In this document: piece after piece, positions 27,547 through 27,894 of the stretch | How positions within the stretch are numbered: position 1 is the stretch's first letter | Layout of the letters: the number at the start of each line of letters is the position of its first letter | Assembly (NCBI RefSeq): GCF_024700885.2 | Contig: NZ_CP117016.1 | DNA: 64,000 nt | Reading direction: 5' to 3' (one strand) | From: Escherichia coli | GTDB lineage: Bacteria > Pseudomonadota > Gammaproteobacteria > Enterobacterales > Enterobacteriaceae | The notes under the pieces: generated by a model | What the model was told of the DNA's origin: nothing | Database searches by the model: none | The model's input: the letters and a program-made list of their open reading frames with translations, nothing else | Position numbers and translations under genes: made by a program

Positions 27547-27894
27547 ATGGCTATCATCCCTAAAAACTATGCGCGGTTAGAAAGCGGCTATCGCGAAAAA
27601 GCATTAAAAATCTATCCGTGGGTCTGCGGTCGCTGTTCTCGCGAGTTTGTTTATTCCAACCTGCGTGAACTTACCGTTCACCACATTGATCACGACCATA
27701 CCAATAACCCGGAAGACGGCAGTAACTGGGAGTTATTGTGTCTTTATTGCCACGATCACGAGCATTCAAAATATACCGAAGCGGATCAGTATGGTACGAC
27801 CGTTATCGCAGGGGAAGATGCGCAGAAAGATGTCGGTGAAGCGAAGTACAACCCATTCGCTGATTTAAAAGCGATGATGAATAAGAAGAAGTGA
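27547..27894 (+). CDS. yajD: HNH nuclease family protein YajD
   Basis: 115 aa; CGRC...HHIDHDHTNN...CLYCHDHEH HNH/zinc-finger motifs. Confidence 0.88.
   Translation: MAIIPKNYARLESGYREKALKIYPWVCGRCSREFVYSNLRELTVHHIDHDHTNNPEDGSNWELLCLYCHDHEHSKYTEADQYGTTVIAGEDAQKDVGEAKYNPFADLKAMMNKKK

Follow-up and report, generated by a model that had tools for sequence, protein, structure and literature searches.

The locus described here raises the question of what cellular task falls to YajD, a small protein with an HNH nuclease signature that is encoded between secF and tsx in Escherichia coli. We analyzed a 64,000-nucleotide stretch of contig NZ_CP117016.1 (RefSeq assembly GCF_024700885.2), hereafter the window, in which yajD forms an intact open reading frame (ORF) on the + strand, with ATG at 27547 and TGA at 27892-27894. 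The translated product of 115 amino acids is MAIIPKNYARLESGYREKALKIYPWVCGRCSREFVYSNLRELTVHHIDHDHTNNPEDGSNWELLCLYCHDHEHSKYTEADQYGTTVIAGEDAQKDVGEAKYNPFADLKAMMNKKK. The explanation that we favor, and to which we give about as much belief as doubt, is that YajD is an active zinc-finger HNH nuclease that is recruited by a partner through its C-terminal peptide and has a redundant housekeeping role in nucleic-acid metabolism. Our analysis establishes which gene this is and predicts the fold of its product. It also shows that every residue required of an HNH nuclease is conserved, that yajD evolves under strong purifying selection as a gene unit of its own, and that no partner gene is conserved beside it.

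The ORF is yajD, an already annotated and named gene. Its product matches the NCBIfam equivalog NF008448, "YajD family HNH nuclease", over the full length (residues 2-113 on positions 2-113 of the 113-position model) with 210.3 bits, above the curated cut-off of 87, and is the same protein as the E. coli YajD of this family (NF008448/PRK11295), with no difference; the family name is itself a similarity-based annotation. The 551 nt around yajD are 100% identical at the DNA level to several E. coli chromosomes, and the stretch was found in 5424 of 5426 complete E. coli genomes, labeled "HNH nuclease YajD" in RefSeq and located between secF and tsx. An earlier sequence-only reading of this DNA had described a stand-alone HNH protein in conserved core DNA that is not novel as a gene, and the single domain, the presence in nearly all complete E. 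coli genomes, and the named equivalog family agree with that description. The same reading took the cellular role of YajD not to be established. Indeed, a full-text literature search for yajD, the family names, and accession-type identifiers returned no functional characterization, and the only yajD phenotypes found were those of Salmonella cbpA/yajD and ychN/yajD double mutants, which are H2O2-sensitive (PMC3878590).

The HNH/zinc-finger signature, which had been called complete, is present in full as C27-x2-C30, HHIDHDHTNN at residues 45-54, N60, and C65-x2-C68-H69-D-H-E-H73. The Pfam HNH model PF01844 is matched over its whole length (model positions 1-47 on residues 27-75) with E = 1.1e-12 and 48.4 bits, above the gathering cut-off of 21.4, and this match, together with that to NF008448, argues that the signature did not arise by chance. 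In an alignment of 319 YajD family members of 100-150 amino acids, H45, H46, N54, D57, G58, N60, and W61 are conserved at 0.99, the zinc ligands C27, C30, C65, and C68 as well as H69 at 0.94-0.96, and E72 and H73 at 0.92. A loss of catalytic residues on careful alignment, which had been named beforehand as an outcome that would refute that reading, was not seen (H46 and N60 at 0.99, H69 at 0.94). Conservation extends to Y15, R16, and L20 (at least 0.91) of the N-terminal helix, three residues that are invariant in the gamma-proteobacterial set.

These residues were placed on an AlphaFold2 (AF2) model of YajD built from 33 diverse relatives; an earlier model from 21 close sequences was poor, with a predicted local distance difference test score (pLDDT) of 68. 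The core of the model used here is confident (pLDDT about 88-91 for residues 20-70) and has the beta-beta-alpha-metal fold of HNH nucleases, comprising a helix at residues 8-22, strands at 42-46 and 61-65, a helix at 66-82, and a C-terminal helix at 105-112. The layout expected of this fold, a catalytic histidine at the end of strand 1, a structural asparagine, and a metal-binding His/Asn in the helix, fits the predicted elements, with H45-H46 at the end of strand 1, N60, and H69, E72, and H73 in the helix. The two CxxC pairs expected for a structural zinc site are provided, in prediction, by C27, C30, C65, and C68. Among known structures, the model matched the human ZRANB3 HNH domain best (score 7.5), followed by the phage GVE2 HNH protein and DotN (both 6.4), EcoKMcrA (6.2), Cap5 (5.8), Cas9 HNH (about 5.6), the Geobacter Gme nicking HNH protein (5.4), and T4 endonuclease VII (3.8). 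A sequence search for solved structures of YajD relatives returned none, and gave weak matches to endonuclease VII and C2H2 zinc fingers only. The C2H2 matches, to ZBTB17 and SALL4 in a profile search of PDB sequences, are marginal (E 0.0015-0.003) and cover residues 25-51 (27619-27699; PWVCGRCSREF...LTVHHIDH); they probably reflect a common beta-beta-alpha shape and not homology.

YajD differs from each of the better-known HNH proteins that it resembles. ZRANB3 (PDB 5mkw) shares only 19% identity with YajD and is a large multidomain eukaryotic translocase, and the C-terminal peptide of YajD departs from the APIM and PIP consensus sequences. The Geobacter Gme (4h9d) and phage GVE2 (5h0o) proteins are small zinc-ribbon HNH nickases that belong to phage packaging modules by terminase genes, whereas YajD has no terminase neighbor and possesses a C-terminal motif of its own. 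McrA, the source of the EcoKMcrA HNH structure (6ghc), is prophage-borne and carries an N-terminal reader domain for modified cytosine, a domain that YajD lacks. With T4 endonuclease VII, YajD shares the H-x-D-H-D-H and C..C(N/H) pattern at a weak sequence match (E about 0.008), but it fits neither the family model nor the fold that includes the dimerization domain. A match to the RNA-guided IscB/Cas9 group reached 20.3 bits against a cut-off of 175 and covered the HNH part only, and there is no Rfam RNA near yajD. Nor is yajD accompanied by an adjacent cognate immunity gene of the kind found with colicin- and pyocin-type DNases.

A further strongly conserved part of YajD, beyond the HNH core, is its C terminus. 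Residues A99, N102, P103, F104, A105, and L107 are invariant in 21 gamma-proteobacterial YajD sequences, and PFAxL..LLKK is retained in branches that are 40-55% identical (Chromatiaceae, Metallibacterium, and a Myxococcota metagenome-assembled genome, MAG). PFxxL occurs within the last 30 amino acids in 228 of the 319 family members; among the about 90 exceptions, most of the 25 that were inspected resemble frameshifted or truncated gene calls. We infer that the peptide is a short linear motif and a candidate for partner binding. It is weakly amphipathic, with a hydrophobic moment of only about 0.3, a value on the grounds of which a membrane-targeting helix was not adopted, and YajD as a whole is mildly acidic, with an isoelectric point (pI) of 6.1.

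By the established logic of beta-beta-alpha-metal nucleases, C27, C30, C65, and C68 would together bind one structural Zn2+; H46, located where strand 1 ends, would act as the general base; a catalytic divalent metal would be held by H45 and H69, possibly with help from E72 and H73; and N60 would be the structural asparagine that fixes the hairpin. So equipped, YajD would cleave nucleic acid at a phosphodiester bond, with the nicking or cutting of DNA as the most likely reaction. Because it has no recognition domain, is mildly acidic, and lacks an immunity partner, YajD is probably not a free, nonspecific DNase. The NPFAxLKxMMxKK peptide, carried on a flexible acidic linker, may instead dock on a conserved cellular partner and thus bring the enzyme to its substrate. 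The role served in this manner would be low-level housekeeping in the metabolism or repair of DNA; it would be redundant under laboratory conditions and would not be one of defense against phages.

Several observations weigh against this explanation. No biochemical activity was reported for any YajD family member in the literature searched, and the nuclease activity proposed is read only from sequence. DotN, a noncatalytic zinc protein, is among the top structural matches, and YajD has more invariant His and Asp residues (D48, H51) than catalysis strictly needs, which could point to metal binding. By eye, the C-terminal peptide matched no clamp-, SSB-tail-, or PCNA-type motif. The neighborhood of yajD supports neither DNA repair nor any other process. 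Finally, a Salmonella yajD single deletion mutant is without a phenotype: stress from temperature, salt, pH, or H2O2 left its growth normal, and it was fully virulent in mice (PMC3878590).

The sequence record of yajD is that of a gene held under constraint for a long time. E. coli YajD is 65-80% identical to its counterparts in Vibrio, Photobacterium, Ferrimonas, Moritella, Shewanella, and Pseudomonas. In comparison with eleven Enterobacterales, the ratio of nonsynonymous to synonymous substitution rates (dN/dS) is 0.01-0.05 where it is computable, and synonymous sites are saturated. At third codon positions the identity is 0.4-0.7, and yajD tracks its host in GC content. Saturated dS, this third-position identity, and host-like GC together indicate that yajD is an old resident under strong constraint and not a recent import; on the same grounds, recent horizontal transfer is ruled out as the source of the 92-96% identity seen in Hafnia, Moellerella, and Dickeya. 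The start MA(I/L/Y)IPKNY is kept across Enterobacterales. In a HMMER search of 1.84 billion cluster representatives, 640 clusters were recovered at E<=1e-3 and 291 at E<=1e-10, and YajD is thus a compact, tightly conserved family. Among uncharacterized E. coli genes, yajD is unusually well conserved.

By contrast to its sequence, the position of yajD is not conserved. The order secF, yajD, tsx was seen only in E. coli, E. albertii, Salmonella, Citrobacter koseri, Kluyvera, and Pseudocitrobacter. In Klebsiella pneumoniae, C. youngae, C. werkmanii, Superficieibacter, and an Enterobacter MAG, yajD lies between a GH18 gene and yeaC-gapA, in Kosakonia between an esterase gene and a cold-shock gene, and in Pantoea on a pPag1-type plasmid of 130-210 kb; the context differs again in Yersinia, Pectobacterium, Serratia, Hafnia, Photobacterium, Vibrio, Shewanella, Colwellia, Ferrimonas, and Chromatiales-like bacteria. 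Clustering of the flanking ORFs of about 90-100 yajD loci yielded no conserved partner gene, and the families that recur are paralogous ones only (LysR, ABC ATPase, LysE, aldo-keto reductase). Among Enterobacterales, homology between contexts is confined to the coding sequence (CDS) and about 60 nt upstream, which include a TATAxT box and the ACAGGTAA Shine-Dalgarno region, with nothing shared downstream, and no inverted or direct repeats flank the gene as mobile-element boundaries would. It follows from the varied contexts and the common CDS with its short upstream region that yajD is a self-contained unit that has changed its location many times, which is unusual for a core gene. It also follows that adjacency to tsx carries no functional information; the secF-yajD-tsx position is a lineage-specific accident and not a functional link. 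The sequence-only reading was correct in placing yajD next to tsx; the two genes are convergent and 37 nt apart. The functional connection that its title hinted at does not hold for an adjacency found in few enterobacterial genera only.

The survey of contexts brought up a number of further observations. A nucleoside theme (tsx in E. coli, adenosine deaminase in Vibrio) was dismissed as not recurrent, being limited to 3 loci. Two apparent gene fusions were likewise set aside, an AlkZ-like YajD fusion (P0128) on a 761-nt contig that is probably a chimera or a frameshift and a BNR-YajD fusion (P0194) that is probably a read-through. In Pseudocitrobacter (L011, 6561-7961; L012, 611-2011), a 466-amino-acid ORF is inserted between secF and yajD, which shows that this spacer can take up insertions. 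In Ferrimonas, the DNA upstream of yajD is variable, with a defense-like pair of SIR2_2 and DUF87 genes at one locus (L003, 847-3872) and a DUF5677 gene at another (L004). Many matches labeled as plasmids are mislabeled chromosomes or chromosome fragments, for example in Salmonella with queA-tgt-secDF and in Klebsiella with gapA. Salmonella CP082688.1 (L100), labeled a plasmid, carries queA-tgt-yajC-secDF-nrdR-ribD and is probably chromosomal sequence; its annotation places an Ldr-family type I toxin gene (7786-7893) in the yajD-tsx spacer, which is only 37 nt long in the E. coli window. The Providencia plasmid pPROV162-1 (NZ_CP096316.1; L102, 1-9132) is a conjugative MOBH plasmid with a Vibrio-like segment encoding LysE, YaiI, GNAT, MFS, Qnr, YajD, and alcohol dehydrogenase, located between two ISCR1 copies and next to armA. 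The same YajD variant is found on a Vibrio furnissii plasmid, and yajD on the Providencia plasmid looks like a passenger of qnr mobilization.

The alternatives to an active housekeeping nuclease can be weighed on this evidence. It is rather unlikely, in our view, that YajD is a noncatalytic zinc- and histidine-rich adaptor, regulator, or metal-handling protein that has kept the HNH scaffold, as DotN has. Degenerate HNH scaffolds usually lose the canonical catalytic positions, whereas H45/H46, N60, and H69 of YajD are kept at 0.94-0.99 over wide divergence, and the closest sequence relatives of YajD are phage homing-type endonucleases. That last relationship could suggest that yajD is selfish and mobile, a homing-type endonuclease gene maintained by movement from one site to another. 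Among phage genes, the closest relative is a homing-type HNH gene in the split DNA polymerase gene of Escherichia phage Av-05 (YP_009111209, PHROG 25862), which shares the core C..C...VHHIDHDxTNN...SNxELLC..CH..EH at 51% identity over residues 27-85, and the many chromosomal positions of yajD in related genera, its presence on Pantoea plasmids, and the mere 60 nt or so of upstream sequence that travel along would agree with such mobility. However, the phage proteins are extended at the N terminus, show neither the N-terminal helix signature nor the NPFAxL peptide of YajD, and are encoded inside split phage genes. GenBank phages matched YajD in the HNH core alone, at 51% identity at most over residues 27-86 and never at full length, and across phage genomes and 2.9 million viral contigs there was one full-length relative, near a contig end; the full-length family is thus essentially absent from phages. 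Homing endonucleases are expected to be sporadic, weakly constrained, and inserted at a defined conserved target site, whereas yajD is a single-copy core gene of cellular genomes; in E. coli it has one fixed site and is under the strong constraint described above, and it shows no sign of recent transfer and occurs in unrelated contexts in which we found neither flanking repeats nor a conserved target sequence. The Providencia plasmid copy is a passenger in an ISCR1-flanked Vibrio segment. We therefore consider a selfish element very unlikely. A related and more tentative proposal, doubtful as a whole, retains the origin but not the selfishness: YajD would be a domesticated homing-type HNH nuclease turned housekeeping enzyme of Gammaproteobacteria, its C-terminal peptide tethering it to a replication/repair or translation machine where it would cut a specific nucleic-acid structure, and its gene, a unit of about 60 nt of promoter/leader and the CDS, would have moved again and again among chromosomal sites and plasmids while very strong purifying selection acted on it.

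An action on RNA or at the ribosome, in which YajD would, for instance, act on translation complexes that have stalled and bind the ribosome by its basic C-terminal tail, is highly unlikely. The tail is short and basic, and in a Chromatiales-like metagenomic lineage (L093, 6001-7852; L094; L095) yajD shares 4 nt (GTGA) with the start of an ArfB-like gene, with an RF-1 domain and a GGQ motif, which is followed by a gene for an NYN-domain protein. Only 3 near-identical contigs show this adjacency, which is missing from about 100 other loci, and the coupling was set aside as belonging to one lineage; moreover, characterized HNH enzymes are overwhelmingly DNases. The least credible of the alternatives is an antiphage or antiplasmid defense nuclease linked to tsx. 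HNH domains are common as defense effectors, Tsx is the receptor of phage T6 and colicin K, yajD adjoins tsx in E. coli, and the Ferrimonas SIR2/DUF87 pair lies within 6 kb of yajD. Defense genes, however, are usually patchy in distribution, whereas yajD is core, single-copy, and under strong purifying selection, has no recurrent defense neighbors in about 100 loci, and adjoins tsx only in the few genera named above. In a PADLOC analysis, YajD gave weak matches to the HNH part of ZorE alone (55-67 residues, 27.5 bits, E 4e-7); the match spans only 55 HNH residues in place of the full length, and the neighbors are secF and tsx, with ZorA and ZorB absent. Taken together, the fixation in E. coli and the phage, viral-contig, PADLOC, and plasmid results argue against a role in defense or as a selfish element.

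The organization of the gene in the window (Table) is that of an independent unit. The order of the region is yajC-secD-secF, yajD, tsx-yajI, and nrdR-ribD. The hairpin after secF sets yajD apart from the secDF operon, and yajD, with hairpins on either side, appears to be monocistronic; no small co-oriented ORF is conserved as a partner across loci. A scan for a sigma-70 consensus promoter upstream of yajD gave no match, and no convincing sigma-32, LexA, or Zur site was seen there by eye. Earlier work reported the in vitro validation of a yajD intrinsic terminator (PMC12207403) and a NusG-suppressed, hairpin-assisted pause site inside yajD (PMC10268239).

Table. Features of the yajD locus, with coordinates in the window
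Feature	Coordinates	Strand	Basis and remarks
secF	26447-27418	+	128 nt upstream of yajD
Hairpin and T-run after secF, intrinsic-terminator-like	27438..27467	+	Terminator scan, inverted repeat I1; 13-bp hairpin
yajD 5' region	27468..27546	+	AGG Shine-Dalgarno at 27535-27537
yajD CDS	27547..27894	+	ORF, NCBIfam match, RefSeq label on identical E. coli DNA
N-terminal helix, residues 8-22, predicted to pack on the HNH core	27568..27612	+	AF2; conserved Y15, R16, L20, K21
HNH (beta-beta-alpha-metal) core, residues 27-75	27625..27771	+	C27/C30 27625-27636; C65/C68 27739-27750; H45-H46 27679-27684
Variable acidic linker, residues 78-98, probably disordered	27778..27840	+	Low column conservation; pLDDT <50 for 84-97; pI 4.3 for 81-100
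Conserved C-terminal peptide, residues 99-115	27841..27891	+	A-(T/K)-x-N-P-F-A-D-L-K-A-M-M-N-K-K-K; short helix and basic tail
Perfect 10-bp hairpin between convergent yajD and tsx	27900..27924	.	Inverted repeat I3; shared, bidirectional terminator
tsx	27932-28816	-	Convergent, 37 nt downstream of yajD; ORF translation and RefSeq label; context only

Two side observations concern the DNA itself. An internal direct repeat in yajD (27688-27715 and 27754-27781; 28 nt, 71% identity) encodes DHDHTNNPE and DHEHSKYTE and may be due to chance. The sole Rfam match at the gathering threshold in the whole window is the small RNA sraA at 57322-57417 on the - strand (106.7 bits), located between the ORFs 56027-57301 and 57444-59843, probably clpX and lon.

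In conclusion, the current understanding of yajD is not changed by these results, given that the gene is annotated, the question of its function had already been recognized, and the proposed connection of yajD to phage biology by way of tsx fails. The C-terminal motif and the positional mobility of the gene are the only points that go beyond the database annotation. That a cytoplasmic nuclease should keep its catalytic residues intact and yet have neither an immunity protein nor a phenotype implies that it is tightly controlled or acts on a very specific substrate. The partner of the C-terminal peptide, once found, would probably reveal the pathway in which YajD acts.
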